Source of the DNA: a virus
Direction: 5' to 3' (one strand)
Virus record (IMG/VR): IMGVR_UViG_3300030098_005409
Length of the DNA stretch: 64,000 nucleotides
How positions within the stretch are numbered: the first letter of the stretch is position 1; the number at the start of each line of letters is the position of its first letter. The notes under the pieces were generated by a model that was not told where the DNA came from, ran no database searches, and worked only from the letters and a program-made list of their open reading frames with translations. Shown in pieces: positions 43,546-61,541 of the stretch. The position numbers and the translations under genes were made by a program.

Positions 43546-43636
43546 TTCGTATGATACTCCTTTGGTGAAAGACTGAATGCCTTTCCTCACTGTGCTTATA
43601 TAATACCACAACGAGGCGCGTCTGTCAAGAGAAAAA

Positions 43637-44263
43637 TTACCGCGAAGTTGCGCCTTCGCGCTTTGTGATCTCCGCGGCCTTCATCAATGCCTTATGCTTG
43701 ACCCTCTCCCAACGGTCGCTTCCCCATCGTACCTGATTCTCTGGAATCTTCATCGTGGAAATTCGTAGAGCGAGTTCAAGCGAGCAATTTGGATGTTGCA
43801 CGAACCTCTCAATCGCGTAATACTCCGGGTCGCGGGTTTCGTCTGTAACAACGTCGTTATAGATTTCTTCAAGTAGAGCGGCTGGAGTATTTGATATTTT
43901 GGGATTCCTGTACCAATGATAGCCGCCTAGAAAAGCCTGAACCATTCGCCAGGAGCGACGATGAAGCCTACGCTTGAAAACATCCCGATAGAATGCGGTA
44001 TACTCTTCGTCTGAAAGTTCCATATTGCCATTCATAAGAAGGCAACACTTGAGAACGTAACCCTTTCTCTCCCAAAGGATTTTGGCAGCTTTGGGTGAAA
44101 CATCGGGGTTTTCCGCAAGGTATTGCCTTCCGAGAGCATAATAATGCTTCGCAATCGCAATTTGTGTCTCTTCGTCAGTAAAACGATTCTTCGCGAGGGA
44201 AACAACCTCGGCATTGTACATCTTGCCAATGTTGGCAGCATAAGGGGACTTGTATTCACTCAT
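43637..44263 (-). CDS. Hypothetical protein with LRV-like helical repeats
   Basis: 'LAENPDVS', 'FVQHPNCS'. Confidence 0.5.
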   Translation of the reverse strand: MSEYKSPYAANIGKMYNAEVVSLAKNRFTDEETQIAIAKHYYALGRQYLAENPDVSPKAAKILWERKGYVLKCCLLMNGNMELSDEEYTAFYRDVFKRRLHRRSWRMVQAFLGGYHWYRNPKISNTPAALLEEIYNDVVTDETRDPEYYAIERFVQHPNCSLELALRISTMKIPENQVRWGSDRWERVKHKALMKAAEITKREGATSR

Positions 44264-44266
44264 TCT

Positions 44267-44530
44267 CTAAAACTCCATCCCGCTGAAATCAAACGGGTCA
44301 ACATTAGCTTGTTCGCCTTCGCCCACCGCATCGGCAACGGACGTATTGAATTGGTGTAGTTTATCCCACACACTCCTGCTCAGGTTATTTACTGTGTCAA
44401 TCCTCGCAAGGATTGATGCCTCGTTTTCCACAAACGCAGACTTGTATTGTGCATACAACTCGTCTTCAAGCCTATTGAGAGCATCCACAATCGTCTCAAC
44501 TTGTTCGGGAGTTAGTTCAAACTTAATCAT
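44267..44530 (-). CDS. Hypothetical protein
   Basis: ORF track; ATGA coupling. Confidence 0.55.
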   Translation of the reverse strand: MIKFELTPEQVETIVDALNRLEDELYAQYKSAFVENEASILARIDTVNNLSRSVWDKLHQFNTSVADAVGEGEQANVDPFDFSGMEF

Positions 44531-44808
44531 TCTGGGAACTCCGAATTTTGGAAAACGACGGGATGCATAACGTGGTCAGCCCTCCATCGCGCCTTTCCAA
44601 TATGGCAGGAAGTCGTCATAGACATAAACGAACCACCAGGGGAAGTGAAATCGCCCAACACCGTTGAGCCCGACTTAGCACGATAACCAATCCGAAGATT
44701 GTAGGAATACAGGTTCACACCATCTGTGCGAAGTGCGCCAGTGTGGGAATCAGCCTTTACGCCGCGTGTCCAGGCATCAATAACTTCTTCGTTTCGCATT
44801 CTACTCAT
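44527..44808 (-). CDS. Hypothetical protein
   Basis: GGAG SD; start MSRMRNE. Confidence 0.55.
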   Translation of the reverse strand: MSRMRNEEVIDAWTRGVKADSHTGALRTDGVNLYSYNLRIGYRAKSGSTVLGDFTSPGGSFMSMTTSCHIGKARWRADHVMHPVVFQNSEFPE

Positions 44809-44980
44809 TTTCTTCTTCCTCATCTCCGAATTCAATGTCGTCGTATTCAACGTCAAAACCGTATCGCAAAGAATTGCAAACGTCCCAAATGTTATCTTCT
44901 TCCATTTCAGTGCAGGCTCCATTCAACGCCAACGGCAATAAATCCAATACACATAATCAGTTGCATAGCAAGTTCAAGCA

Positions 44981-45124
44981 TTAGTCTCTCTTTCTGTTTT
45001 TGTGTTTAGTCTTGCGGGAGCGTCCCTTTGAAACGTCCCGGCTTCTGTTGTGATGTTTACCGGCACCACCTCTTTGAAAGGCTGCAACGGCAATCCAATT
45101 TCGAGTTTTAATCTTCCCAGACAT
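44981..45124 (-). CDS. 47-aa basic protein
   Basis: MSGKIKTRNWIAVAAFQRGGAGKH...RKTKHKNRKRD*; directly after promoter 45155-45183 and GGAGG. Confidence 0.6.
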   Translation of the reverse strand: MSGKIKTRNWIAVAAFQRGGAGKHHNRSRDVSKGRSRKTKHKNRKRD

Positions 45125-45194
45125 TCGGGGCACCCCTTCCTCCACTGTCTTTATAGTATACCAGAAGGGGCACCCGTTGTCAAGAGGAAAATGA

Positions 45195-46481
45195 TTACCT
45201 TTCGGTAGGAACGATAATCATTCGTTCGGGCTTCGGGTTGAAATAAGGACGCTGCCCGTTGTACTCATCGGTAATCCAGAGACGCTGAACATTGCAGCGA
45301 ACCGGCTTCGGTGCCTCCATATCGGTGCAAATGATAAGACCGTCGAATCCGCCCTTCTCATTCACGAAGTTCGTGGGAGCGTTGAAGCAAGTTCCACCGT
45401 GCATTACACGTTCACGCTTGCGCTGCATTCCCTTCTTCCAAACATAGTTCAGACTCTCATCGACACGAGTATCGAAAGGAATGACAGTGAACTCAGCAAT
45501 CTTTGCGAGCGAGTTGAGTTCCGCGAAGAAAGCAGCAAGCATCGAATCCGAAACAGAGCCCGACTGGTCAATGGCAATAGCAATCTTTGCGGTTCGCGTA
45601 GACTTCTTGCCGGGATGCTGGTAAGGATACCGCTTGTTAATCTTACGAACAGTGCTTCGCTTGTTTGCCTTTTGGCTTTGCTTCACGAAGTATCGCAGGA
45701 CCTTGCGCCAGTCAACCTTAGTGGAAATACCATCCATGATTTCCTTGCGACAACTGGCAGGAACTGAACCCCATCCACGGGAAGAAGAGTTTGCCTCTTC
45801 AACCGCATCCTTGATAAACTCCTTTACACGCTCCTCAGCAATCTGCTTTGCCTGTTCATCGGCTTCGCCCCATCCACCGTGGTCATCAAAAGAATCCATA
45901 TCATCCAGGGGACTTCCGCCACCTCCACCGGGCTGGCCTTCACCGTCACCGCCTTGACCTTCGCCATTACCTTCACCTTCCGGCTGCTCTTTCTGCATCT
46001 TGCGAAGCTCAGACAAGTACCATTCGGCAGACTTGCCAGCAGGCAAATGTTCAAACGGACCCTTACCAGGGAAACAGGCCATATCAGGAAGATTCGGAAG
46101 ATGACCGTTGATAGAAAGGTCCATCGCTACATTGTGCAACTTCCTTTCTTGCGGGCTCATATCGCGGAATGCTGCGAATCGCCCACCAGTAACATGCTGA
46201 TAAACAATGTGATAGAATTCGTGCTTTAGCACATCCTTCTTTGCTGCATCCTCCAGTCCCGCGAAGAACTTAGGATTGTAAATCATCTCCAACTTACCTT
46301 CCTCAGTCACCATCACACCGGCAGTTGGAATAGCAGCCGAAGGCTTCTTATCCATCCGACGCGAAAGTGCCGCAAAGAAAGGTTCATCCATTAGAAGACG
46401 ATGGATGTGCAAACCAAGGTCAAAGGCAATAACCCCTGATTCCTCAGTTTGTTCAGTTTCAGTTTTCATCGGCTCAGTCAT
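45195..46481 (-). CDS. DUF2201-type metallopeptidase + vWA-like domain protein
   Basis: 'LKHEFYH', G/E-rich linker, MIDAS 'IDQSGS', 'GGT', 'TD'. Confidence 0.85.
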   Translation of the reverse strand: MTEPMKTETEQTEESGVIAFDLGLHIHRLLMDEPFFAALSRRMDKKPSAAIPTAGVMVTEEGKLEMIYNPKFFAGLEDAAKKDVLKHEFYHIVYQHVTGGRFAAFRDMSPQERKLHNVAMDLSINGHLPNLPDMACFPGKGPFEHLPAGKSAEWYLSELRKMQKEQPEGEGNGEGQGGDGEGQPGGGGGSPLDDMDSFDDHGGWGEADEQAKQIAEERVKEFIKDAVEEANSSSRGWGSVPASCRKEIMDGISTKVDWRKVLRYFVKQSQKANKRSTVRKINKRYPYQHPGKKSTRTAKIAIAIDQSGSVSDSMLAAFFAELNSLAKIAEFTVIPFDTRVDESLNYVWKKGMQRKRERVMHGGTCFNAPTNFVNEKGGFDGLIICTDMEAPKPVRCNVQRLWITDEYNGQRPYFNPKPERMIIVPTER

Positions 46482-46554
46482 TCGCTGCTCTCCCCACTGT
46501 CTCTATATAATAGCAGATTTGAAATCCCCTGTCAAGGGGAATCTTCATCCCTTA

Positions 46555-47616
46555 CTATACCGAGTCGCCGGTCAGAATTTCAACAAGGTAGGAACCAACC
46601 TTACGACCGCTCGCATCTTCCGCCGAGTGCAGAGAGATAGCATTGTCCTGGCAAGCGTTGCCGACAACGGTCCAAAGCTTCATCGCAGGTTCCGAAGGAA
46701 GCGAAGTGAAGTAAGTCGCGAGGTTGGTAATCTCGCCTTCATTCAGCGCATTCGCAAGACGCTCGGAGGCACCCAGCTTATCAATCAAAGCGCAGTGCGC
46801 GTTAAGGTCAATATCCGGGGTCTGTCCCTTATCGAGAATGTCGGAGACAGTCACGACCTTGCTGTAGTTCGCAACGAAATCGTTGAAAGCAACCGCAGCC
46901 TCAAAGCCGAGATAAGCAGAAGCAAGCGAGAAAACAACCGGATTCGATTGTCCAGCTTCCAGCATTCCACCGCGACCCACCGTATCGGAGAATCGAGCCC
47001 ACGAACGACGCGAAGGATAAACCTTGTTAGGCTCCGGGTCATCGTTGTGCTCAAGATGCTCGACGTTGTTACGAATGAAGTCCGTCACCAGAGCATCGCA
47101 GTTGGACTGTGCCCAGGAAAGCCAATCATCCACCGAAGGCTCAACATCGAAAACCGTGTAACGGTCAAGCTCGGCAGGGTCCATCTCGCCAACCTGATAA
47201 GAAGCCGCACCCGCATGAGTGCCACCGTTGACAGCCGCGAAAATCAGCGTATCCGGGTGGAGAGCGTGACCGGCGAGCTTGCGAGAATCACAAAGCTCAA
47301 AGATGCCCTGTCGAACTTCCAGGGTTGCACGGTCTACCTCATCGAGGAAGAGAACCACGCCGGTATCGCAAGCAGTCGCAAACCAGTCGGGAGGACAAAA
47401 GGAAGTCACACCCTCATCCACGGTGGGAAGACCCAAAAGGTCGCCCTCGGTCATCTGCGAAGCACGACGCTCCACAATCGGCATACCGAGAGATTCGGCA
47501 TACTGATAAACCACAGAGGACTTACCAATACCGTGACGTCCACGAAGAAGTACAGGATGCCCCGCGTCAGTAACGAGGGGAAGGACGGTCAGAAGATTCT
47601 TGAAGTCGATTGCCAT
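46555..47616 (-). CDS. MoxR/dynein-like AAA+ ATPase
   Basis: Walker A 'GRHGIGKS', Walker B 'LFLDEV', 'MDPAELDR', 'PSRRSW'; start MAIDFK. Confidence 0.88.
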   Translation of the reverse strand: MAIDFKNLLTVLPLVTDAGHPVLLRGRHGIGKSSVVYQYAESLGMPIVERRASQMTEGDLLGLPTVDEGVTSFCPPDWFATACDTGVVLFLDEVDRATLEVRQGIFELCDSRKLAGHALHPDTLIFAAVNGGTHAGAASYQVGEMDPAELDRYTVFDVEPSVDDWLSWAQSNCDALVTDFIRNNVEHLEHNDDPEPNKVYPSRRSWARFSDTVGRGGMLEAGQSNPVVFSLASAYLGFEAAVAFNDFVANYSKVVTVSDILDKGQTPDIDLNAHCALIDKLGASERLANALNEGEITNLATYFTSLPSEPAMKLWTVVGNACQDNAISLHSAEDASGRKVGSYLVEILTGDSV

Positions 47617-47726
47617 GTTTTTCTTTCTTTCTTTTCCAGTTGACTGAGCGTTGTCGCTCCGTCCAGTGTCTATATAGTACCACACCAGGGGCTCGCTGTC
47701 AAGCCCCAAATTCATCTCTTTCTTAA

Positions 47727-48599
47727 CTAACTATCATCGCCAGGAAGTTCCGGGTCATCCATTTCCGAAAGTTGAATTTCACCGTTGACATACCGTTGAA
47801 GTTGGTCAAGCTGAAAATCGGTAAAGTGCTTGAACCCATGAGCCTGTTCGGCAGTCTTGCCGCCTCTGAAGTGTTCCTTTGTAACCTTCGCGAGGGTCTT
47901 TGCACCAACCCACTCGGAACTAAAATCCTTGACGGCAGGCGAAACGGTTTCCCACTCTCCCTCGGCACCGACATACTCATTCCTGTCATAATTATTATAT
48001 TGATCATAGTACGACTTCACCCTTCCGTGGCGCGGCACAATGCCAGGAATAGAGGGAATGGCAAGAGTAAGTGACTTGCCATAATAGCCAGGGTCCTTGA
48101 TTCCCATAACATCAAACGATGCGAAAGGAACATTGTTATTTGACCACGCGTTAGTCGCAGGGATACCAACATAATGGGTCATAAATTGCCCCGGAGTATC
48201 GTGCATAACCATTCCAACAGGAGGGACGTAATTGTCATCCGAGGGATACAAGTATTGTCCGTCTCTTCGATAAGAAATCTTACCAGCGCGAACCATCGCA
48301 CCAATACCAAAGCCGGTATCCTTTGCCCACTTGAGGACAGCACGACGCCACAAACTCAGTTCAAACTGAAACTGCGACTTGTGTCGCTTCATAATCGCAC
48401 AACCGGCGCGGGTGTGACCTTCTTCGCCACAATAACTACAAATCCTTGGCTTTGCCTTGCGGTCAAGAATTGCCTGCCACTGGCGACCATAATAACTGTT
48501 AGGGTCCTTTTCCCATTCCTTCTTCAATTCAGGACAACTGGTTTTGTTGTGTCCTGATTGGTAACAATGGCTACAACGTACTGTGCCAGTATAACTCAT
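47727..48599 (-). CDS. Protein with two CCHC zinc knuckles
   Basis: 'CSHCYQSGHNKTSC' and 'CSYCGEEGHTRAGC'. Confidence 0.75.
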   Translation of the reverse strand: MSYTGTVRCSHCYQSGHNKTSCPELKKEWEKDPNSYYGRQWQAILDRKAKPRICSYCGEEGHTRAGCAIMKRHKSQFQFELSLWRRAVLKWAKDTGFGIGAMVRAGKISYRRDGQYLYPSDDNYVPPVGMVMHDTPGQFMTHYVGIPATNAWSNNNVPFASFDVMGIKDPGYYGKSLTLAIPSIPGIVPRHGRVKSYYDQYNNYDRNEYVGAEGEWETVSPAVKDFSSEWVGAKTLAKVTKEHFRGGKTAEQAHGFKHFTDFQLDQLQRYVNGEIQLSEMDDPELPGDDS

Positions 48600-48835
48600 A
48601 TTTTCTCTCCCGATTGCGGGGGGGTTAATCTCTAACTTCTACCTGTATTATACCAGCCTCAAAGGTGGCTGTCAACCTTTTTATTGTAAGGATGGGGGGC
48701 AACATCTTTTCGGGTGTTGCTGCCTAGACAACTTTTAACTTATTTTGTGTTGCCCCACACATATGGGCGGCGAACACTGGGATTCAAGATTGTCATTGAA
48801 GCCCAAATTTATATAATTTTCACCCCAATTCTATG

Positions 48836-49489
48836 TCACTTACGCTTCTTTGCCTTCTTTAGATAACGCTCTTCCGTCCAAATGGGTTCGGCAGACCCGA
48901 TTGGCAATACCTGTACTGGCTTTGCGCCCTTTGCATGGGACTTAACGTCGTTCGCATCCCCATACTTCAAAATAATGACTGGCTTGTTTGCGAATCGGCG
49001 GGTTCCGCTGGCGGCTCGGAAGCAAGCAGTCGAACCTACTACAAATTTAGGTTCGCTCAGGAAGTTGCGAATGACACCCGCAGCGTACTTGTTTTCTACG
49101 ATCTTGTTGTATTCCCCCATTGTGGGAGTACCGCCGGAACGGACACCTGTGAGTCCATCTTTACTCTTCTCATATTTAAGATACTTCCCAGTAATATTGC
49201 CGTAATAGCCGGTTCGATCGTAATAATTAAGGGCGATGCAAAACTTCTGTTCCTTTTCGTCGTCCCAATTTTTGACCCAATCCGCGCGAGCTTTAAGAGC
49301 TTCGTCAGACCAGCGACCCTTAATTTGCTGAAATGCTCGTTCCTGCGGATAGGAAAGAGTCCTCCCACTAGCCAAGTGCTTAGTGATAGACTCTAGGAAC
49401 CCATAATCCCAGGAGTTTTCCTCCCCGGCAATAAGGATTCTTCCCATGAAATCATTTACTTGTTCAAGCATCGTAGTTCCTTCGCTCAT
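48836..49489 (-). CDS. Hypothetical early protein
   Basis: Directly after promoter 49499-49527. Confidence 0.7.
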   Translation of the reverse strand: MSEGTTMLEQVNDFMGRILIAGEENSWDYGFLESITKHLASGRTLSYPQERAFQQIKGRWSDEALKARADWVKNWDDEKEQKFCIALNYYDRTGYYGNITGKYLKYEKSKDGLTGVRSGGTPTMGEYNKIVENKYAAGVIRNFLSEPKFVVGSTACFRAASGTRRFANKPVIILKYGDANDVKSHAKGAKPVQVLPIGSAEPIWTEERYLKKAKKRK

Positions 49490-49523
49490 CGTGTATATAT
49501 ACTACCACAGACCGGCGCGGCTG

Positions 49524-49943
49524 TCAAGCAGAAAGTAAAGTTTGCAGATTAGTGATGTGCTTGCACTTTCCACGAAACTGAAACCCTGAACATTCACACT
49601 TCCACTTGTTGCCTTGCTTCGTGACTTTGTAAGTATTGCCCTTTGAGCCCTTTACTTCAATTACCTTTTCAGGTTCGTCTGAATAGTTCGGATCCCAATA
49701 CTTGCGAGCTTCCGCACCCCAACAAAACAACTCCTTCACATCTTCCAAAGTTGTATCGTCAGGAACCTCAATCCATACACCACCAGAGACAGCGTAATAC
49801 TTACCTTCCCTGCCCTGCATGATAGCCGGATGGAATAAAACTACATGTCGTCCATCAGGCGTCAATTTGCGAAGCATACTCGGCAGCCAATCGCTTGTAG
49901 GTTTGAGCCTGAAAAGTATCAATGTTGAAGTATTCCTCTTCAA
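49524..49943 (-). CDS. SWIM zinc-finger protein
   Basis: 'WKCECSGFQFRGKCKH'; start uncertain. Confidence 0.7.
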   Translation of the reverse strand: MKRNTSTLILFRLKPTSDWLPSMLRKLTPDGRHVVLFHPAIMQGREGKYYAVSGGVWIEVPDDTTLEDVKELFCWGAEARKYWDPNYSDEPEKVIEVKGSKGNTYKVTKQGNKWKCECSGFQFRGKCKHITNLQTLLSA

Positions 49944-50423: not shown

Positions 50424-51095
50424 CTGACCTCCAGTGTCTATATACTACCACACGACGACACGATTGTCAAGTCATCTTCGTCTAACCAGCATCCGTCACC
50501 GGGTCCAAAATGAACCCAATAGGAAGGGACATATAGACGCTTCCAGCTTTCCAGTATAATTCCAACTTTGCCAGCCAAGTTCTTACCACTAATCGCGGAG
50601 GCACCCAAAGTTTCCTTATTGACTTTTACCATATCGCCAACTTCATACACGGCTTATATCCATTCTTTAAGTGGGGCTGAACTCCCTCATCATATGTATA
50701 CTATAGCACGCGCGTGGGCTCCTGTCAAGGTTTTTAATCGTCTGATTCTACGCTCCCGATAATTTCAATTTCGTCGTGGTCCACATAAAACTTACCATAC
50801 TGAGGATGGTGTAGAAGGTAATCCCACTTACTCGGAACGCCCGATTCTGGGTCATACCAAAGAGGAAAAACTTCCATAACCACAGCAACGTCGCCTGTTT
50901 GAATATCGCGAACCAAATCACCGACTTTCATTGCTACTCGCCACCCTCAAGCATGCTTCACTCCACCAACCTTCGTTATTTGCAGTGTGCCATACGATAT
51001 AATATCCGGCGTGCGAGCGGGACAAATCCATTCGGACTATTGTTCCAAGTTGGCGCTCTTTCGTGAGGATCTGACCCCCTACGTATTCCACCAAA

Positions 51096-51254
51096 TCACC
51101 GACTTTCATTTTCTTCCGTCTCTTCGACAGTTAGGACCTCAACAAACTCTGGCTCTGCCGAGTAATCACTGTTTTCAAACTTAGTCCGAGCTTCATCTTC
51201 TGATTCGGCATCGACATAAATTTCCATACGATAACAAAGGCGATAAACTTTCAT
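51096..51254 (-). CDS. Small acidic protein (copy 2 at 54095-54244)
   Basis: MKVYRLCYRMEIYVDAESEDEAR... in both copies. Confidence 0.7.
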   Translation of the reverse strand: MKVYRLCYRMEIYVDAESEDEARTKFENSDYSAEPEFVEVLTVEETEENESR

Positions 51255-51461
51255 TCTCTGATAATCTCCAATTGGTCTTGCCACATTGATTCTTCAATAT
51301 CTTCCCAATCAAAAAAGTTATTTCTTTTACAGACAGACCACCATATATTAATTCCGTGTTCTTCTTCTCTAGTTACAATCCCAATGTCGTCAACATCTTG
51401 ATCATTGTCGGTTACATCGGCACCCCACCAGCGCACTAATGAGCCAATCTTCAAGCCATCA
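51096..51461. repeat. About 365-bp two-gene duplication, copy 1 (copy 2 at 54085-54451)
   Basis: Hand alignment of 51121-51460 vs 54111-54450: 36 mismatches in 340 nt (about 89% identity). Confidence 0.95.
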
Positions 51462-51845
51462 TAATCAATTTTTGCCACGGCTGATTATCTCCAACTTGTC
51501 GCGACGGTGGTAAACATCCCATGACTCTCCCTTAGCCGCAGTATCAAAGTAGCGCACCCAAACATGTATGCCTTCGGTTGCTATAATATATCCCGCTCCG
51601 TCGTCCGCCCACTCTCCGCGAGCCTTCACAACATCACCAACTTTAGGCTTCGTTCGCACGATGCACCGTTATTCCGTTGTCCGCTTCCCAGCGTCTCATT
51701 TCGCCAAAGTAATAGTGGTATATCATCTCATGGCAATCCACAAATTTAACGTGGACGCCGAAGTCATCAAACATACCATCTCGCTGAACCCGTACAACGA
51801 TTCCTATTTCTTTACCACTTCGCTCGTGAAATTCAATCAAATCAC

Positions 51846-51909
51846 CGGGGTTGTATTCGCTCATAATGGCAGACAATCTTTCTCGGAGTGCGGGGTTGTA
51901 TTCGCTCAT
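51846..51909. repeat. 19-bp direct repeat CGGGGTTGTATTCGCTCAT
   Basis: Exact copies at 51846-51864 and 51891-51909. Confidence 0.95.
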
Positions 51910-52691
51910 CGTGCTTATAGCATACCACGACAGGTTCAGTCTGTCAAGTCTTTATTGACTACCTGCAAATCATCGGGGACCTCCCAATCGTGCTTTCCAT
52001 CCATAGTGTAAACTCTGTATTGTTCCACGCCAGTTGTGAGCAGATGTCGGCTGTCCGTAATAACACCGAGAGTGTCAGTGTATCTCCACTCGCCACCACC
52101 ATCGAACACATACTGAGCCTTTTTCAGTATTACCGCATCACCGATTTCCATTTACCCGCTCCAAAGCAAACTCTAATTCATGTTGAGGAGGATAATCAGG
52201 CCACTTAACAATGACAACTCCCTCTTCATCTGCTTCTTTAAGAATAATGCCAAGCTCTGTATACAATGTTTCGTCTCGCATGATCGTATGATACTTAACC
52301 AAGTCACCGACTTGCACTGATTACCTCCACATCCCAATCGTTAGGATGGAACTCCCGGCGTTTTCCGTCACGGTTACACACAACGGAAAACCAGAAACGG
52401 TTCACGCCGTCGTTAGGGATAACAAGTATGCCGAAATAACGGTCATCGTCACCGCCCCTAATCTCTTTGTGTGTAACCACTACCAAATCACCGATTTGCA
52501 TTACTTACCCCAACGAAAGGATTTCAAAGTCTTCCAAAGGACGCCACATTGTGGGTCCATCACCAGCGAATTGAATGTATTCGCCCTTTCCATCACACTT
52601 ATACGCTGCGACAATCTTCATAATCATCGAACAATCGCGCACAAGCGCACCAATCATAGGCATACCGCGACTTAAAGTCATTTTACTGTCC

Positions 52692-53072
52692 TTAGTATTG
52701 AATGGAGGTTACGGGAGTAATATCCCAATAGCCGGAACCACGAACAACTACGTCACCATAATCCTCGCCAACTCTCGCAAAGCGGAAAAGCTCTTCTGAA
52801 TGTACTTCTTCGCCATCGTCGTTGGTTATTTCCCATTCCCCCGACTCTGCATCATCCATAAACTTCTCAATCGCATCAATGTCGGCATAGCCTTCATACC
52901 ACTTGATTGAATCCCACACGAGAAGCCACGACTTATCGTTTTCGTAGTTTCGCTCAAGATTGCCGTACTTAAACACCAATTCTTCCGCCTCTTTGTTCTT
53001 AGAAGTAGCCAGCAGAAGAAAAGGAATTAGTTCCTTGCTGATAGCCATTACAACTTGCGAGCGATAACCCAT
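52692..53072 (-). CDS. Hypothetical protein
   Basis: GGAGG SD; 'MGYRSQV...WDSIKWY...RVGEDYGD'. Confidence 0.7.
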   Translation of the reverse strand: MGYRSQVVMAISKELIPFLLLATSKNKEAEELVFKYGNLERNYENDKSWLLVWDSIKWYEGYADIDAIEKFMDDAESGEWEITNDDGEEVHSEELFRFARVGEDYGDVVVRGSGYWDITPVTSIQY

Positions 53073-53082
53073 TCCATACCTC

Positions 53083-53319
53083 CTAGTTCAGGCGTTGTGC
53101 TAGTGCAGCGAGTTCGCCATAATTGACAGCTCGGGCCGGCAAATACTTTAGGTCAACGTCATTTCTCTCCAAATGACTCATTACCCCGTAGAGTGAAGAG
53201 GGAGAAGTAGAGTGATCCCATTCTGTGTTCTTACTCAGGCGGCGGCTCACCTCGTGAACAGATGCCGAGGTTTGCCATGTTTCTATGAACAATTTGTAAT
53301 CTTCGTGGCGTCGTGCCAT
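53083..53319 (-). CDS. Hypothetical protein, possible HTH
   Basis: After promoter 53343-53371; 'SVHEVSRRL'. Confidence 0.55.
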   Translation of the reverse strand: MARRHEDYKLFIETWQTSASVHEVSRRLSKNTEWDHSTSPSSLYGVMSHLERNDVDLKYLPARAVNYGELAALAQRLN

Positions 53320-54084
53320 GTGTGTACCTCCATTGTGCTTACAGCATACCACGGGATGCGGCTGCTGTCAACCCCTAATCGTTAATCGTGAAATCGTAGG
53401 GCTCGTGCGGAATGATAGAAAGCGCCTCGCGTCTTTCCCACGAATCACGGTGCGGGGCCAACTCGTCTTCCCACTGCACACACAACTGCTGGAATGGTGT
53501 CTCCACCTCATAGCTGCTGTCGATTACGGTTCCCACCGAACCAGTTCCAAAATGCTGTACCTTATCCCCAATATCCATTTCTAGTTTCCTTTCTTTACTA
53601 CCTTCACATAATTTCCCATGATGAAACCCGTTCTGTTGGGCCATGCGACAATTGGATTCTTTCCGAAAGTATCCCCCACGCGGAAATCAACAATAATGCC
53701 CAACTCGCCGCTGTTGATATTTCTTACCAAGTCACCGACTTTCACTTACCATCTCCAAAGCAAACTCTAGGTCATACTCAGGGTCCTTGTCGGGCCACTT
53801 AACCAGAACAGTACCGTCAGTATCCATTTCAATAACAATCCCAAGCTGTAGTGTTTCGCCTTCGGTGTGCAACAAACCAGGGTGATACTTAACTAAATCA
53901 CCTACTTGCACTGACTACCTCCAAGTCTCTCCGCCTTACCCAGCTAACATCCTTGCCGCCATCATCGAACCACCGAACACGTAGTTCCTTGATACCGCGG
54001 ACAGGGAGGTCGTGAATGAATTCCTCTACAACTATTCCCACGCAATCAGCCTGAAAACCCTGCGACCGACTGAGCTTTACTAGA

Positions 54085-54451
54085 TCGCCGACCTTCATTC
54101 TCTCTCCGTCTCTTCGACAGTTAGAACCTCAACAAACTCTGGCTCTGCCGAGTATTCACTATTCTCAAACTTAGTCCGTGCTTCATCCTCTGATTCGGCA
54201 TCGACATAAATTTCCATACGATAACACAGGCGATAAACTTTCATTCTCTGATAATCTCCAATTGGTCCTGCCACATTGATTCTTCAACCTCGGACCATTC
54301 AAAAAAGTTGTCTCTGTTGCAAACAGACCACCAAATAGTAACTCCGTTTTTTTCTTCTCTAGTTACGATTCCAACGTCGTCAACGTCTTGATCGTTGTCA
54401 GTTACATCGGCACCCCACCAACGAACCAAAGTGCCAATCTTCAAGTCATCA
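54085..54451. repeat. About 365-bp two-gene duplication, copy 2
   Basis: See copy 1. Confidence 0.95.
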
Positions 54452-55918
54452 CTTATCATGACTGATTGCCTCCACATACTCTTCACCTACAATGAAGTTT
54501 TCCCCATCAGCGTGAAGTTCTATGCGCCGTCGTCGCCCTGGACGCCGGGAGTTGATAATACGAACAACCACACCAGCCAAATCACCAGCGGCAGGTGCAC
54601 TGCTCCACTCTGAGGCCCAGTGTGACCAAACTGCCAAATCACCGCGTTTCATTTTTACTCACAACTTTCCAATGTCCAGGGTCGGCCATTTCAGGGCGGT
54701 CGCTACCAACGAATTGAATCTGTATCCGGTTGAACCATGATATACACTCGGTGCTTATCACAATAGCAAGTGGAGCGCCGGGATGATGCTTTGGTGTAAC
54801 CAAATCCCCAACCTGAAACGAGCTAAGAAATGTGCTCTTTTCCATCAATCTTCCTCCACTGTCTATAGTATATCAGGTGGAGCCAGAGTTGTCAAGTCGT
54901 AATCGTCAATCCACGATTCCGAGCCGTCCATGAAAAGGACGAGCCATGTGAGGGCGTGTTGTCTCCTCCACAGTTGAGTAATAATCCCAACTTTTCCCCC
55001 CAGAGCATGGCTGGAAGGATGAGCTTGATGCTCTGACTTCACTTTTACAATATCACCGATGCCCATTTAAGCCTCCGGGGGAGCTGGTGGTGGTGGAACT
55101 ACGGGCTCCAAGTCTGCCGACCTGAGTCCCATTAAAAGAGTTATTCCCTCGCATTCGCTTCGACGTATACTATAGATGGTTTCCGGGCCATCTAGCGAGA
55201 CATGAGTAATGACGCAAATTCCCCAGCTAGGGTAAGCAGTAAGAGTGACCTCATCGCCTACGCCCACGGTGTTTCCTCGTGTAAGAATCGAATTCGTATA
55301 TGGCTAGAATTACAAGTGCCAAACCAATGAGGCCAACTTCTTTGGCTACCCTTTTAGCGCGGGATTTCCACTTGTCTTTCATGGCGCGGCTTCCCTCATG
55401 ATGCCTAGAGCATACCACGGTTATACCTCTAGGTCAAGTACTTTCTCAGATTGTTCAAATAGCTCGTAAAACTCTTCTCTCACAAGTACCGGGCCACGTT
55501 CTCCCTGGGGCCAGATTTCCACCCAACCCTCCAATTGCAACGCCGTCACTATGCTCACCGGCACGAGGACCCCCATTTCTCGGGAAAGAATGGGAACCAC
55601 CTTGTCTCCTATGCGAAACTTGAAACTCATACTGCCTCCACATGCCGCCACGCATCCGGCCACATCCAACACACGGTTCCCTCAATAGAAACTTCCCGTA
55701 CATTGAAGAAGCCTCCATAGTAACTCGGGTCTGTCATTTTTTTCTGCCCTAAATAAATCATTAGAGGTTGCCCAAGTTGAACCCATTTTAGAGTTTGGTT
55801 TTTATGAGGCACGCTGATGTCGAGCCAGTGATCGTCTCCGCTGTCGCGTAAATACTTATAAATTCGGGGCTCCTTGAATCTGAGGAGCATTCCTGGTTTT
55901 AGTTCTGAAACTTTCATA

Positions 55919-56362
55919 TCACCACACCACCCATTCGGCGGCGGGGTGGTCCGCATAATCATATGCCCTAAAAAGGAAATCATAGCTGTTCGCACAGTGA
56001 TAAGAATTTTCAGGGGAGCCGATATTGTCAAAAGACACGCGCCACTCATCCTGCGCAACAGGGGCTAGAGAAAAAACTGTGTTATAACTATACAATTCGC
56101 TTCCTTCGATGGAGGCATATACGTCCTCTATTTCATCGGGGCCATAAGTGGTGTCAGGGTTGGCTACCAGCGTCCAGTGCGAGATTTGGTCGCCCACGCT
56201 ATATTCACAATAGACGGCAGCGTCATTAAACCAAACGTCATATCCCCCAGGGAAATGGGTGTAGTGAGAGCGGCGCTCTGACGGGTGCTCGACTAGCACC
56301 AGACACCCTCCCACAAGGGCTGTAATTCCCCCTATGGCTGCGACCTTAATCAGGCTTTTCAT
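55919..56362 (-). CDS. Putative lipoprotein
   Basis: MKSLIKVAAIGGITALVGGC lipobox; follows promoter 56430-56458. Confidence 0.6.
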   Translation of the reverse strand: MKSLIKVAAIGGITALVGGCLVLVEHPSERRSHYTHFPGGYDVWFNDAAVYCEYSVGDQISHWTLVANPDTTYGPDEIEDVYASIEGSELYSYNTVFSLAPVAQDEWRVSFDNIGSPENSYHCANSYDFLFRAYDYADHPAAEWVVW

Positions 56363-56678
56363 CATAACATCCTTCCGCATATGTTGTATCATAGAGAGAC
56401 GTTACCTCTCTCTTTAGGCTACTCTCTACAGTATGCCACAACCCAAGGGCCATGTCAAGGGTTTTTTTGTCTACTTTTCCCTGCGTGGCTAATTCAAGGA
56501 TATTCTCGATTCCTACGCGAAACTTATGCCGCTGCTGCTGTATCTCTAGTATCTCAACGAAATAAGAATAGCACTTACTCATCTGTTCCTCTTGAGCTTG
56601 CAGAGTGGATATACCCACACATAGCACAGAGAGCAAGCAAAGCAAAAATAAACAACATCGTTGTAAGCCCTCTTTCAC
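56346..56678 (-). CDS. Putative secreted protein
   Basis: Signal-like N-terminus; ACTATTTA 4 nt before the GTG. Confidence 0.5.
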   Translation of the reverse strand: MKEGLQRCCLFLLCLLSVLCVGISTLQAQEEQMSKCYSYFVEILEIQQQRHKFRVGIENILELATQGKVDKKTLDMALGLWHTVESSLKREVTSLYDTTYAEGCYDEKPD

Positions 56679-56900
56679 TCACTAAATAGTTTTTTGAGGA
56701 ATCTTCTGCCAATAATCCTGATTGGTGTATCGTTTCTCGCCCACAGTTTCGGGATAAGATTTGTCGTAAACTATCACCAATTCGCACACCTCGGCTCCTG
56801 AACTCGTCACATCTACGTTTAGGACAATTGCCAGGCGACCGGAGTCCTGTCTATATTGTACCAAGTCTCCCGAAGCCAAGCGCATGTCCTAAATAGTAGC

Positions 56901-56967
<67 letters not shown>

Positions 56968-56977
<10 letters not shown>

Positions 56978-57279
56978 GCGGGGGGTGCAATCACACCCGG
57001 AGGAACTTCTCCTTCCACGAGGCCGCCATGCTTTACAATAACATTAGTAACAATATCAACAGGGACATATCCATAGACTGTGCGTGTAGGTTCCGCCGGA
57101 GATTCCGCCCAGGGCATAAGAAGCGGCTCTTCCTCAGACGGGAACCCAACCTCGACAAGATTATATTTCTTTTGCTCATTCAGTCGAGGCTCGCAATATG
57201 CGTTTTCGTTCGCCTGAACCGACATTTCAAAACCGTCGGCGCACAGGACTTGCTCGTTCAATTTTCTTCTTCCTAACAT
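56968..57279 (-). CDS. Conserved hypothetical phage protein; stop codon lies inside tRNA-Arg
   Basis: 'CADGFEMSVQA...YCEPR...VEVGFPS...TVYGYVP'. Confidence 0.7.
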
Positions 57280-57305
57280 TTTATTCTTCTTTCAATTTGG
57301 GTAAA

Positions 57306-57382
57306 TGGCTGGGGCGGTTGGATTCGAACCAACAACCTCCGGGGTAACAACCCGGCGTCCTTGCCAATAGGACCTCGCCCCA
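57306..57382 (-). tRNA. tRNA-Asn(GUU), non-canonical body
   Basis: TGGGGCG/CGCCCCA acceptor, G73, anticodon loop TTGTTAC, A8/U14, CCA. Confidence 0.85.
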
Positions 57383-57383
57383 A

Positions 57384-57460
57384 TGGTGGGATAGGCGGGA
57401 CTTGAACCCGCGACCGGCGCTTTATAAGAACGCTACTCTGACCTACTGAGTTACTATCCC
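57384..57460 (-). tRNA. tRNA-Ile(UAU)
   Basis: GGGATAG acceptor, anticodon loop CTTATAA, A73, CCA. Confidence 0.9.
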
Positions 57461-57515
57461 AGCTTTGGGGTCCGTAGGTCATTTGAGAGCATACACTTAG
57501 GTTCGTAAGCGTGGG

Positions 57516-57707
57516 CTAACTCTTCTTATCTCCTTGTAAAACCATGAGAAGCCACTGCTTAAATTGCTTAGGTGCCCATCGTTTAAGGTTATGTTCCAGC
57601 TTAAACCATTTTACAAAGTCATCGGACATGTCAATAGTGAGGACATTCTCCTCCTCGTTTTTCAACTCAACCTTTAGCATTGTAATATGGGGTTTGTAAT
57701 CTTTCAT
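57516..57707 (-). CDS. Hypothetical protein
   Basis: Starts 7 nt after the -10 of promoter 57715-57743 (possibly leaderless). Confidence 0.55.
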   Translation of the reverse strand: MKDYKPHITMLKVELKNEEENVLTIDMSDDFVKWFKLEHNLKRWAPKQFKQWLLMVLQGDKKS

Positions 57708-57751
57708 TATGAATATATTACCACGCTGGAGCGTGTTTGTCAAGCGTTTTT

Positions 57752-57826
57752 TGGCTCCGGTGGCTGGACTCGAACCAACAACCATCCGATTAACAGTCGG
57801 ATGCTCTACCATTGAGCTACACCGGA
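57752..57826 (-). tRNA. tRNA-Asn(GUU), canonical
   Basis: TCC...GGAGCCA, anticodon loop CTGTTAA. Confidence 0.95.
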
Positions 57827-57946
57827 ATAATATCAGTCTTCGTCGTAGTAGTCAAGACCTTTCTGAATTTCTCTTATCGTTAGAAGCGCAAGCATAATAA
57901 TAATTATAAAGACTGCAAGTGGGTTCATCTTCTTTTCCTCATGTTT

Positions 57947-58032
57947 TGGTAGCGCGGGCGGGACTCGAACCCGCAAGGTCTAAGACCGGCAGATTTTAAG
58001 TCTGCTGTGTATACCGATTCCACCACCGCGCC
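57947..58032 (-). tRNA. tRNA-Leu(UAA)
   Basis: Long variable arm, anticodon loop CTTAAAA, A73, CCA. Confidence 0.92.
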
Positions 58033-58117
58033 ATATCATTACTTAAGTTGTTGTTGATAATAAAGGTAAGCTCCCCCGATAACAACACACGCCGCTATAC
58101 CCATCAGTTCTAGGAAC

Positions 58118-58675
58118 TCAATCATGCCACGTTTCCATCGTGCGAAACCATGACGGGACAGAGGCTACTGTTCCGCCCTCGGTGTGAATCCAGTACAAGT
58201 CTTGTTCTCCCTTTTTTCCCGCATGTTGGCGAAATTCGTCCCGACCAAAAATGTGCTGTTCAAGATCGCCCTTAGTACACCACCATGCCTGAGCGCCGGA
58301 AGCGTTGAGTCCCAAAAAGACCACTCGTTCATATTTCTGCTTCGAACGAAGCTGTTGCCATACAAACTTATTATCCGTGGCCTCCCAGGCGCTTGAGGTT
58401 TTTACCTCTGTAGGAAGGTTGTCGGGAAAAATATCAAAATCCGTCCCGGAGCCTTTGGGTTTGGTCGGCTTGCCCGCGGGGTCACGAGGAACAACGCTTC
58501 CGTTTCCTTCCAGAATATCCGCCACCATCCGTTCGCCGGTGGCCCCCTTTGAGCGCGACGCAAGGCGACGAAACCACTCAAAAGGACTTCCCTTCCAGTA
58601 TTTATCGGCTTTGGTTTGCTGTTGTCCCTGTTGGCAAGTTTGCCCCGCTATCAAAAGTTTAGTTATATCAGTCAC
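58118..58675 (-). CDS. PD-(D/E)XK restriction-endonuclease-like protein
   Basis: 'KGATGERMV', 'FDI...TEVKTS', 'WQQLR'. Confidence 0.6.
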   Translation of the reverse strand: MTDITKLLIAGQTCQQGQQQTKADKYWKGSPFEWFRRLASRSKGATGERMVADILEGNGSVVPRDPAGKPTKPKGSGTDFDIFPDNLPTEVKTSSAWEATDNKFVWQQLRSKQKYERVVFLGLNASGAQAWWCTKGDLEQHIFGRDEFRQHAGKKGEQDLYWIHTEGGTVASVPSWFRTMETWHD

Positions 58676-58693
58676 TTATAAATCCTTCTTAGA

Positions 58694-58769
58694 TGGTGAA
58701 CCCCCTGGGACTCGAACCCAGAACCAATGGATTAAAAGTCCAGTGCTCTACCTGTTGAGCTAGGGGTCC
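58694..58769 (-). tRNA. tRNA-Lys(UUU)
   Basis: Anticodon loop CTTTTAA, CCA; own promoter upstream. Confidence 0.93.
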
Positions 58770-58812
58770 TTCTCACATCGTGCTTGTAGCTTACCACGCA
58801 GGGGGGCGGTTG

Positions 58813-59055
58813 TCAACTTCTTTTCTTAATTGAGTGAAAAAGCCACACCGGCCCCCACACCAATAAAAAGAATAGCATAATGATACCCAAGCCTGTCTCG
58901 TAAGTAATGTAGGTATCGAGTCTCAGCTCATTGAGTACGTTTGTGACAATAATACTGTTTATGATGAAATAGGCGCCCAAAGCCCCTAAGATGACAAGTG
59001 CCAGTACCACGTCAATACAGGTATATAAAAATTTCTTCATTCTGTCGTACATCAT
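58813..59055 (-). CDS. Small two-helix membrane protein
   Basis: Hydrophobic segments; GGAG SD. Confidence 0.6.
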   Translation of the reverse strand: MMYDRMKKFLYTCIDVVLALVILGALGAYFIINSIIVTNVLNELRLDTYITYETGLGIIMLFFLLVWGPVWLFHSIKKRS

Positions 59056-59064
59056 TTTTTTCTC

Positions 59065-59451
59065 CTATAGTGGATTCTCTATCAGATCGTAGTGAGTAGG
59101 CGTGGGAAAACCCACTCGCTTACCTTTCGCATTAGTGTGAACGCTATACCATTCTCCATTAAAAATAATCAACTTACCAAGGTGTTCTGACTTTGGATCA
59201 GTGATCATCCACACGCTCCTGCCAGCCATAGCACTGGGCTTGCTGATGCAAGTAAGCATAGTTCCCGTAATTTTCTCTCTGGTGGTCCGATCCGGGTGAG
59301 TATGGTAGTTTATGCTCTCACTAGTTTTTTCCGCTAGTCGTGCGTAGGCACAATCAATATCTTCTTTCCGAAAGAATAAAATAGCGCCGGGCTTCCACGA
59401 TCTATTTGTGAAGTAAGCTGTTGTGCCTACTTTGGTATTGTAAATTTTCAT
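59065..59451 (-). CDS. Hypothetical protein
   Basis: GGAG SD; ORF track. Confidence 0.65.
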   Translation of the reverse strand: MKIYNTKVGTTAYFTNRSWKPGAILFFRKEDIDCAYARLAEKTSESINYHTHPDRTTREKITGTMLTCISKPSAMAGRSVWMITDPKSEHLGKLIIFNGEWYSVHTNAKGKRVGFPTPTHYDLIENPL

Positions 59452-59460
59452 TTTCTCTCC

Positions 59461-59835
59461 TCACATCTCTCGCGTATAGTGCGTTCGTAGGAAGCGCGCA
59501 ATGGCGGCAACCGTATAGTCGATTACAACGTCATCGTCCTGATGGTCCATAAGGTGCTCCTGAGCTTCCTCAATCACATGAATCTGTGGTAGCGGTAGCG
59601 CCATGTCTAAGCGGTGGGCATCGTCGTGCACGGCAAACTTCATATACTCGTCGCCCTTTCTGCGAACGTAACGATCGTGGTTCTGCCACTCCCATTTATA
59701 GCCTAGTCGCCATAGGGAATGCCAGATTTGTTCCCAATCCTGAATTGCTGCGGTGGTCCACGTAAAGTTCCGTAGCCCGGTGCGGTTGGGGTTCTCTACG
59801 AGGTCCACCCCACATTCCTCATATATTCGTGTCAT
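59461..59835 (-). CDS. Hypothetical protein
   Basis: ATGA coupling; ORF track. Confidence 0.65.
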   Translation of the reverse strand: MTRIYEECGVDLVENPNRTGLRNFTWTTAAIQDWEQIWHSLWRLGYKWEWQNHDRYVRRKGDEYMKFAVHDDAHRLDMALPLPQIHVIEEAQEHLMDHQDDDVVIDYTVAAIARFLRTHYTREM

Positions 59836-60092
59836 TTTTTCCTCACAAGTCTAAGTTGGTTCTTTGTCATTTGCACCTGTCCTTTGCCTAGACGCATATA
59901 ATACGAATCTACATTTCCTGGCTTTTCAAACCAGTGCACCACGAACCAGGGCTGCGGTTTCTCTAAGTCCCGGTAGCGCCCCTGCGCCTTCGTATCCATT
60001 GTAGGTCCTCGGACAATAATGCCGAACCCCTTTCCATATGTGCTGTTCCGAGCCTCTACAAGAGCACCGGGAATGTATCTAGCTCTTGCCAC
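59832..60092 (-). CDS. SH3/KOW-like small protein
   Basis: 'PGALV...FGIIV...VVHW'; promoter 60115-60143. Confidence 0.6.
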   Translation of the reverse strand: MARARYIPGALVEARNSTYGKGFGIIVRGPTMDTKAQGRYRDLEKPQPWFVVHWFEKPGNVDSYYMRLGKGQVQMTKNQLRLVRKK

Positions 60093-60309
60093 TATATGCC
60101 TCCATCGTAGCTACAGTATACCCTCCCAGAGCCACGTTGTCAAGGTTTACTTTTCTTTCTTTCATTTCGTTCTCCAGGCGCAACTCCCGAATCCGTCGAG
60201 CGGTATACCTCTCGATAAAAGGGTCGGGCCGCGTGACCGGATCTGTTTCACCGCGCAGCTCCCGCATTCGGTGCCGCGTGTACTTCTCAATCTTTTGATA
60301 CTCGTTCAA
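60079..60309 (-). CDS. Hypothetical protein with internal 'ERYT.RR.RELR' repeat
   Basis: 'IEKYTRHRMRELR' and 'IERYTARRIRELR'. Confidence 0.45.
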   Translation of the reverse strand: MNEYQKIEKYTRHRMRELRGETDPVTRPDPFIERYTARRIRELRLENEMKERKVNLDNVALGGYTVATMEAYSGKS

Positions 60310-60487
60310 GATAATCTCCGTGAAATGTTATTGTTTTTCCAAACTTAGTAAAATAAACAGCATACTTATTTCCGTGGTCAGTTCCCAACTTTGCCGGGAC
60401 GTCTTCCAGGACAACACCGATTCCATAGCTGTTATCGACTTGATTTAGTGTATCGCGAACTAGGTCGCCTACCTTTAGTTCTTTCAT
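60287..60487 (-). CDS. SH3/KOW-like small protein
   Basis: 'LKVGDLVRD...IGVV'. Confidence 0.65.
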   Translation of the reverse strand: MKELKVGDLVRDTLNQVDNSYGIGVVLEDVPAKLGTDHGNKYAVYFTKFGKTITFHGDYLERVSKD

Positions 60488-60957
60488 TAGCGTTTTACTA
60501 CCATCACATCAGGCGCTCTGCGCGGCTTTCTGCTACGTTTTGTCGCCTTCTGCTTCCTGCTCCCTTCTGCCTGACGCAAACAGCGCCCACAGGCAATGTG
60601 GCCCCTTAGAGAGCCTTTCCCTTGTCTAAGGAATGCTGGCGTGTACGCACAGTATTCACAGGTCAGTCGCGACTGCTCCCTCGCAGTCGTAATGATATCT
60701 TGGATGGGCGGCGTAAGATTGCGCGTCGCAACATGTAAGGTCCCGTCTTCGTTTCTAGAAACTTCCGTAATCGCACAGTCGTGCGCACTGCCCGACGAGA
60801 GCTTCTCAATCTTTTTAGACATTTCATAAATTATTTTATACCAGCCATTCTCGCATTGAAACCCCCATGCCATACTGGAGCTTTCCAGGGGTGCGTTTCT
60901 CTCTCTATATAAGTGGGCAAACCTTTCGTAAAGGTTGTTGGTCTTATGACTATCCAT
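60487..60957 (-). CDS. Hypothetical protein with C-terminal CxxC...CxxC
   Basis: GGAGG SD and promoter before ATG 60957; 'GFQCENGWY', 'TCEYC...ACGRC'. Confidence 0.65.
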   Translation of the reverse strand: MDSHKTNNLYERFAHLYRERNAPLESSSMAWGFQCENGWYKIIYEMSKKIEKLSSGSAHDCAITEVSRNEDGTLHVATRNLTPPIQDIITTAREQSRLTCEYCAYTPAFLRQGKGSLRGHIACGRCLRQAEGSRKQKATKRSRKPRRAPDVMVVKR

Positions 60958-61021
60958 AACATAGCCTCCTACTCTTATACTGTAGCATAGGAATCCGAGG
61001 CTGTCAAGATTTATTATTGTT

Positions 61022-61267
61022 TTAGCGAGTAAGGCGCGCTCGCACCGCTGAATAAAATCCATTCTTCTGTGCGGCTTCTTCATTCGCAAAGCACAGTTCG
61101 GCCTGTGTGCGATGGTAGAACGGGCTATCCGGGGTGTGATATAAGTATGAATTAGCATTACCCTTGATAGGGAAGTCTGCTGGGCAGCTTCCATCCGTGG
61201 GCGCGAACCTTATATGGGCACACCCAGTCATCAATAATGCACACACAATAATTAAAATCTTTTTCAT
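61022..61267 (-). CDS. Putative lipoprotein with Ada-like/sunset metal-binding domain
   Basis: Lipobox 'LMTGC'; 'IKGN...YHTP...Y...CFANEEAAQKNGF'. Confidence 0.65.
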   Translation of the reverse strand: MKKILIIVCALLMTGCAHIRFAPTDGSCPADFPIKGNANSYLYHTPDSPFYHRTQAELCFANEEAAQKNGFYSAVRARLTR

Positions 61268-61488
61268 CTCTCTTGTCTTTCTGTTCTGCTCACCAGCTCA
61301 TAACTCTTCTCATGGAATGTAAACTCGCGACCCTGAGACATCATAGTAACCGTTGTGAACTTTTGGTCTGTCTGATCGTGGACCAGCTCCCGGATCTCTG
61401 TTACAAGGCCCACGGGATGCCCCAGCCACTCACTTTCTATAAGTCTCACTAAATCGCCAATTCTTATGTCTACTGGGTACTCCATCAC
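61264..61488 (-). CDS. SH3/KOW-like small protein
   Basis: 'IRIGDLVRL...VGLV'; promoter 61504-61532. Confidence 0.6.
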   Translation of the reverse strand: MMEYPVDIRIGDLVRLIESEWLGHPVGLVTEIRELVHDQTDQKFTTVTMMSQGREFTFHEKSYELVSRTERQER

Positions 61489-61541
61489 TCAACCTTCAAC
61501 GACATAGTAGCACGCTAGGCGGGCGGTGTCAAGGGTTGTTC

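Follow-up and report, generated by a model that had tools for sequence, protein, structure and literature searches.

The 64-kb stretch of DNA analyzed here (IMG/VR record IMGVR_UViG_3300030098_005409, hereafter the window) comes from an uncultured marine phage and carries on its minus strand, between positions 43600 and 61532, an early-type block in which 18 sigma70-type promoters and one further, doubtful site are distributed among about 55 small co-oriented open reading frames (ORFs) and six tRNA genes. Very probably these sites serve as early promoters for a marine myovirus of T4-like type that has not been cultured; the primary-sigma RNA polymerase of the host would use them, and relatives would exchange them as cassettes. 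The array is real but ordinary in kind, being the known early-promoter layout of T4-type phages that resembles the promoter early stem-loop (PeSL) cassettes. Less usual are its confinement to a single block, the near-universal TGn, the ATA/YA element with short or absent leaders, the stop codons embedded in promoters and a promoter type mismatched to the hosts of the nearest cultured capsid relatives.

Two patterns were used for the scan, a loose one (TTGACM-N17-TAnnnT) and a strict one in which TGn is demanded (TTGACN-N14-TGN-TANNNT). The loose pattern matched 21 times in the window as against 1.14 ± 0.95 times in dinucleotide shuffles, and 17 of the 21 matches were on the minus strand within 43600–61532. 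The strict pattern matched 17 times, each time on the minus strand and inside the same block, with 0 matches on the plus strand. A consensus scan added a site at 56430–56458 (TTGACA, 17-nt spacer, TGG, −10 CATACT with C at −12, and an A-run upstream), which is probably the 18th site of an earlier note on this DNA. With this site counted, the claim of that note, namely 18 sites on one strand with TTGAC[AC], an exact 17-nt spacer and TGn in 17 of the 18, was reproduced; the sole site without TGn is 60143, where GGG stands instead (sites are named hereafter by their higher coordinate). The hexamers of the 18 sites score 9–12 of 12 with a spacer of 17 nt throughout, and their density, 18 per 17.9 kb, agrees with the one per kb claimed previously. 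From every site the next ORF start or tRNA in the gene direction is reached within 1–51 nt. Chance or base composition as the source of the array was rejected in view of the shuffles, the other strand and backward-read controls in relatives.

The same promoter architecture was found on the gene strand in all the relatives, coded L001–L013 for contigs and G001 for a complete genome of 194 kb. A genome-wide scan, which the earlier note had put forward as a check, was run on G001 and returned one single early-type block: the strict pattern matched 15 times on the reverse strand and 0 times on the forward strand, backward-read controls gave 0–1, and 12 of the 15 matches fell within one 17.6-kb block. 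Each of the five close relatives L001–L005 retains the orthologous promoters of the block's five larger conserved genes (25/25), while the DNA around these promoters is only 65–80% identical and the spacers differ freely; such retention amid diverged DNA is the pattern that would be expected under selection on polymerase contacts. In the AT-rich relatives L011 and L013 the spacers consist of A/T, yet ATAAACACAATCAA is kept after the −10. Local variants with TTGCAA at −35 and CATAAT at −10 occur in L006 and L007. In this sub-lineage (L006 290–7700; L007 8600–10000) early promoters take the variant forms GATTGAC[AT]-N17-CATAAT-ATAG... and CTTGCAAT-N16-TATACT-TAGAGAGT, and the consensus of the clade thus drifts, possibly following different hosts.

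As to the identity of the clade, 13 IMG/VR contigs encode the DUF2201 protein of the block at 54–88% identity. Because four of these relatives (91–100% complete) encode a Gp23-type major capsid protein, the clade is judged from these capsid genes to be T4-like. Judged by the capsid protein, the closest phages in culture are Flavobacterium phage immuto, at 49%, and Microcystis phage Mel-JY01, at 46%, in which the strict promoter pattern gave 0 matches in 160–190 kb; this absence is consistent with promoters adapted to a different host sigma.

The anatomy of the sites extends beyond the two hexamers. A C directly before the −35 and A's at about −40 to −46 are conserved in the site alignment, and the 20 nt upstream of the −35 have 41% GC against 48% for the region, as in an A/T-rich UP element. 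The 14-nt part of the spacer is GC-rich (68%), and its sequences are otherwise unrelated between sites. Downstream of the −10, frequencies were counted over 63 aligned sites of the window and its close relatives: positions 1–3 are A (81%), T (79%) and A (94%), purines occupy positions 4–5, and a pyrimidine stands at position 6 in 83% of the sites and an A at position 7 in 95%. We infer that this ATA-RR-Y-A element combines an A/T discriminator with a Y(−1)/A(+1) start site, and transcripts would begin about 7 nt after the −10. The common leader with a Shine-Dalgarno (SD) sequence that had been described after many of the promoters could be confirmed only in part. The three quoted strings are present verbatim (ATAGACACTGGAGG after 50470, ATAGACAGTGGAGG after 54895 and TAAGCACAATGGAGG after 53371), but GGAGG follows only 6 of the 18 sites and the best-conserved downstream part is the ATA with the pyrimidine at position 6 and the A at position 7, not the SD.

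With the predicted start placed at position 7 after the −10, the leaders fall into four classes. The first has a strong SD 4–6 nt from the 5' end within an untranslated leader of 12–20 nt (e.g. 50470, 53371, 54895, 60143 and 61007), the second an ATG at +1 to +3 (57743, 51947 and possibly 49527), the third a leader of 31–51 nt whose shared motif is not an SD (43628, 47702, 48675 and 56458), and the fourth a tRNA directly downstream (58816). For the second class, initiation would be leaderless. Between two L001 paralogues with MS(D/E) starts, three of the differences within the initial seven codons are synonymous and one is a replacement, and since the differences are mainly synonymous, they argue that the ATG at +3 is truly translated. 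A leaderless start was rejected as the preferred call for the gene at 48836–49489 because its orthologues keep an in-frame second ATG with an AAGGA SD, which makes an SD-led start at 49471 at least as likely. Elsewhere in the window GGAGG precedes only 1 of 40 long ORFs and about half are without an SD-like motif, start calls there being crude, and strong SDs are thus for the most part restricted to the early block. Where the genes of the block are tightly packed, those upstream terminate inside the next promoter: the stop codon is the TGA of TTGACA at 58816 and 49527, and the TAG of ATAG at 54895 and 50470.

Mini-ORFs were also observed at +3 of predicted transcripts, on the minus strand, at 58770–58787, 50667–50690 and 55379–55399. 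The one at 58770–58787 is a start-stop ATGTGA ahead of tRNA-Lys, two begin MRE (ATGAGGGA...) and one overlaps the next start as ATGA; they may be upstream ORFs, or simply the SD GAGGGA. Separately, the first 16 nt of the gene at 51643–51909 (ATGAGCGAATACAACC) recur in frame 45 nt downstream (window 51864–51909, minus strand), which looks like a 15-codon tandem duplication at the N-terminus.

Exchange of the promoters as cassettes is indicated by comparison of gene order and of three indel junctions resolved in detail. The region 42–50 kb is colinear with the relatives, and the order of the small genes at 50–56 kb is scrambled among them. Promoter 49527 is a chimera, consisting of the upstream half of the L001 promoter at 6425 through the spacer and, from the −10 onwards, the downstream half of the L001 promoter at 6894; in L001 these two flank a unit of about 470 bp that encodes a protein with 69-nt repeats, and a paralogous unit stands at L001 2579–3602 between two further promoters. 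The 78-aa gene at 53083–53319 is missing in L001, L003, L004 and L005 with the junction at a repeated GGAGGTA, and the promoter with its 47-aa ORF at 45183 is present in the window and L003, not in L004 and L005. Gene-sized indels thus end inside promoters or at the GGAGGTA ribosome site. The earlier suggestion of copied cassettes holds as far as exchangeable units are concerned, given the chimeric promoter and the indels that end at a shared SD or carry their own promoter; the units are not recent copies of one another, their spacers being unrelated in sequence. The L001 repeats themselves (2651–3516 and 6514–6802) are 69-nt (23-aa) tandem repeats of the form ...NGDKEW.LNGK.HREDGPAVE..., each copy lying between early promoters, and by eye they are MORN-like.

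Several known systems offer a comparison. T4 early promoters are 'uber' promoters with the elements UP, −35, TGn and −10 plus extra consensus regions, and they outcompete host promoters (PMC2988021). For five T4-like genomes, early promoters have been predicted 5' of tRNAs and novel ORFs; several of these phages prefer C at −3 to −1, and RB49 tolerates C at −12 (PMC1524935). The array shares with these T4-type early promoters (Hinton 2010, PMC2988021; Nolan et al. 2006, PMC1524935) the UP/−35/TGn/−10 elements, the extra consensus in the start region, the position 5' of novel ORFs and tRNA genes and the occurrence in tens per genome, and its units of a strong host-type promoter and a ribosome site, placed before small genes, correspond to this T4-type early architecture (PMC2988021, PMC1524935). 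It differs from T4 in its canonical −35 TTGACA, where T4 has GTTTAC, and in its very short or absent leaders. The phage moreover belongs to a marine clade that is distant and uncultured; the closest cultured phages by capsid protein are only 46–49% identical and have no such sites.

PeSLs consist of a sigma70-like promoter, an AT-rich upstream region, a stem-loop and an SD with start codon; hyperplastic regions are densely populated with them, and by recombination they give rise to indels (PMC2839356, PMC4122927). They have been described in RB49/phi1, T4/PST and KVP40/nt-1 (Arbiol et al. 2010, PMC2839356; Comeau et al. 2014, PMC4122927). Likewise, the present sites are near-perfect TTGACA-N17 promoters that are AT-rich upstream, have an SD and start at the end, are dense among the small orphan genes of a hyperplastic region and show gene-sized indels between relatives with junctions inside the motif. 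What is absent is the stereotyped stem-loop, since the GC-rich spacers are unrelated here, and the array is therefore classed as T4-type early promoters behaving like PeSLs rather than as PeSLs in the strict sense. In RB49 our scan gave 59 sites versus 6 on the other strand, spread over the genome, many with spacers of the stereotyped form GGGGATC...GATCCCC and few with TGn, whereas in the window TGn is near-universal and the sites are packed in one block of about 18 kb.

The likeness to the host-takeover region of SPO1 claimed in the earlier note holds as an analogy: PMC6873191 describes a module of 12.4 kb with 26 small early genes (Stewart et al. 1998, as cited there) and with promoters and ribosome-binding sites typical of highly expressed genes. 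Both are compact clusters of small early-type genes. The analogy is one of design only; SPO1 belongs to another, unrelated phage family with a Gram-positive host and has its module in a terminal genome region.

In the favoured explanation, a host sigma70-type polymerase would contact the A/T-rich UP element, the −35 TTGACA, the TGn and the −10 TAnnnT at the optimal 17-bp spacing, and on the resulting transcripts one would find a strong SD only 4–6 nt behind the 5' end, a leaderless start with the ATG at +1 to +3, or else a tRNA. Right after DNA entry the whole block of about 18 kb, with its small orphan genes and tRNAs, would be highly transcribed and translated, its expression running from many short units. 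The units share about 45 nt of near-identical signals and would act as short homology patches, at which genes and promoters would be gained, lost and shuffled like the PeSL cassettes in RB49/phi1, T4/PST and KVP40/nt-1. Sigma70-type recognition, the position-7 start and high expression are predicted from the form of the sites, and early timing from analogy with the phages above.

Some points weigh against this explanation. Timing, start sites and promoter strength are predictions, and recognition by the RNA polymerase of the host is assumed. The stem-loop by which PeSLs are defined is weak here: at p<=0.05, folding was more stable than in shuffles for only 5 of the 17 promoters in the window and 6 of the 47 in close relatives (mean z −0.48 and −0.47, respectively; combined Z −3.2 for the 47 relative sites). 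Beyond the three worked cases the match of breakpoints with promoters is merely suggestive, because intergenic DNA diverges fastest anyway. The 19th site, TTGACT-N14-TGA-TATTAT at 57827–57855, is without the ATA element and is doubtful as a normal promoter because its −10 ends one base before tRNA-Asn(GTT) at 57752–57826, so that a normal start would fall inside the tRNA. With regard to hairpins, the clearest stem-loops are at 46535, 47702 and 48675, with others at 57743 and 60143, and no stem sequence is held in common; tested against shuffles, the idea of a universal PeSL stem-loop proved weak, only about a quarter of the window sites folding significantly.

Among the alternatives, the one that survives best, though it is unlikely, holds that the element after the −10 (ATA-RR-YA-C-R-R-T-G; ATAAACACAATCAA in AT-rich relatives) does more than provide start context and has a signal function of its own. 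A phage factor might target it to shut off or boost early transcription; it could also act at the RNA 5' end in translation or decay, or serve as a site of recombination. The element is indeed kept where it is not an SD, as at 58816 before tRNA-Lys and at 43628 and 47702 with the real SD 40–50 nt further on, it persists across relatives with very different spacer composition, and one indel junction falls in it. An A/T discriminator with Y(−1)/A(+1) is nevertheless expected of any strong promoter, and for T4-like early promoters extra consensus regions and a preference for C at −3 to −1 are reported (PMC2988021, PMC1524935). The search for a candidate factor returned none: in four relatives the profiles of AsiA (PF09010) and RegB (PF10715) gave no match, a search that is uninformative as the controls were also silent, so that absence is not shown. 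Slightly less likely again is the more specific form, in which the motif between −6 and about +8 (ATA-RR-YA-CRRTG, or ACACAATCAA in AT-rich relatives) would serve the marine clade as a signal dedicated to early transcripts. If true, a phage factor, ribosome or RNase would read it at the very 5' end of the RNA, and it would couple promoter escape to the translation of transcripts that have their SD or AUG no more than 6 nt behind the 5' end; the phage would also gain a single handle for turning off the whole early class.

It is improbable that the sites act constitutively, in the middle phase or as boosters of read-through instead of immediately early, in which case the block would be expressed beyond the first minutes. 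The sequence itself fixes no timing; nonetheless the −35 boxes are intact with no replacement by an activator box, unlike T4 middle promoters (PMC2988021), and the small orphans and tRNAs are gene content typical of early regions (PMC1524935). Least probable is the RNA-polymerase sequestering suggested in the earlier note, an array that mainly titrates host RNA polymerase off host promoters with the downstream ORFs incidental, even though the sites come close to the greatest strength of sigma70 promoters and T4 early promoters outcompete host promoters (PMC2988021). At a fixed short distance behind every site comes an SD with its ORF, a leaderless ATG or a tRNA; across relatives, the genes downstream and their promoters are conserved together, and a decoy role is not needed because every site is placed to express what follows it. 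Moreover, it is generally accepted that 18 sites on one infecting genome cannot occupy a meaningful share of the cell's polymerase.

Taken as early promoters, the sites carry the early-promoter and PeSL-like cassette design of T4-type phages over to an uncultured clade of marine phages, remote from the enterobacterial and Vibrio phages for which it was described, and leave the current understanding of phage transcription unchanged. The signature TTGACA-N14-TGnTAnnnT-ATA marks the early block in metagenomic contigs and argues for a host that has a canonical sigma70, and not for the phylum in which the closest cultured phages by capsid have their hosts. The promoters could serve as very strong, compact promoter-RBS (ribosome-binding site) parts, and host-takeover functions would naturally be sought among the roughly 55 orphan early genes.

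The individual promoters, all on the minus strand, are described here in gene direction, with the N14 omitted after the first. The site at 61504–61532 (TTGACA-N14-TGC-TACTAT) has its first start at ATG 61485 (73 aa), and that at 60979–61007 (TTGACA-TGC-TACAGT) has the leader ATAAGAGTAGGAGG and ATG 60957 (156 aa). At 60115–60143 (TTGACA-GGG-TATACT) a GGAGG is followed by GTG 60092 (86 aa). The promoter at 58788–58816 (TTGACA-TGG-TAAGCT, leader ACAAGCACGATGTGAG) stands directly before tRNA-Lys (58694–58769). Downstream, at 57715–57743 (TTGACA-TGG-TAATAT), ATG 57707 (63 aa) coincides with the predicted start site, for a possible leaderless mRNA, and a second tRNA-Asn(GTT) was observed at 57306–57382. 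The added site at 56430–56458 leads to ATG 56392 (157 aa). Leader CTAGGCATCATGAGGG and ATG 55382 (43 aa) follow the site at 55409–55437 (TTGACC-TGG-TATGCT), while ATG 54845 (68 aa) belongs to 54867–54895 (TTGACA-TGA-TATACT) and leader GTAAGCACAATGGAGG with ATG 53319 (78 aa) to 53343–53371 (TTGACA-TGG-TATGCT).

The site at 51919–51947 (TTGACA-TGG-TATGCT) has ATG 51909 at +3 (88 aa, MSE...) and is likely leaderless, whereas the one at 50700–50728 (TTGACA-TGC-TATAGT) has a 7-codon mini-ORF at +3 and a gene start at GTG 50650 or ATG 50632. Two sites share TTGACA-TGG-TAGTAT: 50442–50470, with ATG 50423 (115 aa), and 49499–49527, with ATG 49489 or 49471 (217 or 211 aa). Three further sites have a hairpin around the −35, namely 48647–48675 (TTGACA-TGG-TATAAT, 12/12), before ATG 48599 of a 290-aa protein with a zinc-finger match, 47674–47702 (TTGACA-TGG-TACTAT; GGGGC/GCCCC), before ATG 47616 of a MoxR-like AAA ATPase, and 46507–46535 (TTGACA-TGC-TATTAT; TCCCC/GGGGA), before ATG 46481 of a DUF2201 metallopeptidase-like/VWA protein. 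The promoter at 45155–45183 (TTGACA-TGG-TATACT) has the leader ATAAAGACAGTGGAGG and a small ORF of about 47 aa. At the last, 43600–43628 (TTGACA-TGG-TATTAT), a terminator-like hairpin lies upstream at 43641–43660 and the leader motif ATAAGCACAGTGAGG is not an SD; an SD AAGGAG and ATG 43545 lie 48 nt downstream.

The larger genes of the block encode the MoxR-like AAA ATPase, the DUF2201/VWA protein and zinc-finger and SWIM proteins, and Pfam gave no match for ten promoter-proximal small ORFs that are first genes. Megablast of 43–62 kb against 50,697 phage records returned a 57-nt tRNA-Arg piece as the sole match and no close DNA relative. When the window was compared with three metatranscriptome contig sets of the same sample, the matches were limited to short, tRNA-like pieces that have loose ends and probably stem from other organisms.

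Outside the block, a one-piece phage transfer-messenger RNA (tmRNA) lies at 20648–20960 on the minus strand (Rfam RF00023, 133 bits, full length) with the tag ANDADYGLALAA. An identical tag occurred in none of 185,579 species genomes, and the looser AND..Y.LALAA matched only Duganella/Rugamonas and one gammaproteobacterial metagenome-assembled genome; this is at most a hint of a proteobacterial-type tag and does not point to a host. The GC content of the window rises from 36–39% at 1–12 kb, where a glycan gene cluster lies, to 42–46% at 22–40 kb and 45–51% at 40–64 kb. Finally, many small early ORFs (50438–61485, minus strand; L004 521; L007 206–3928) start with or contain ...(I/V)GD(L/M)V... 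and appear to form a paralogous family whose members often have their own promoter.

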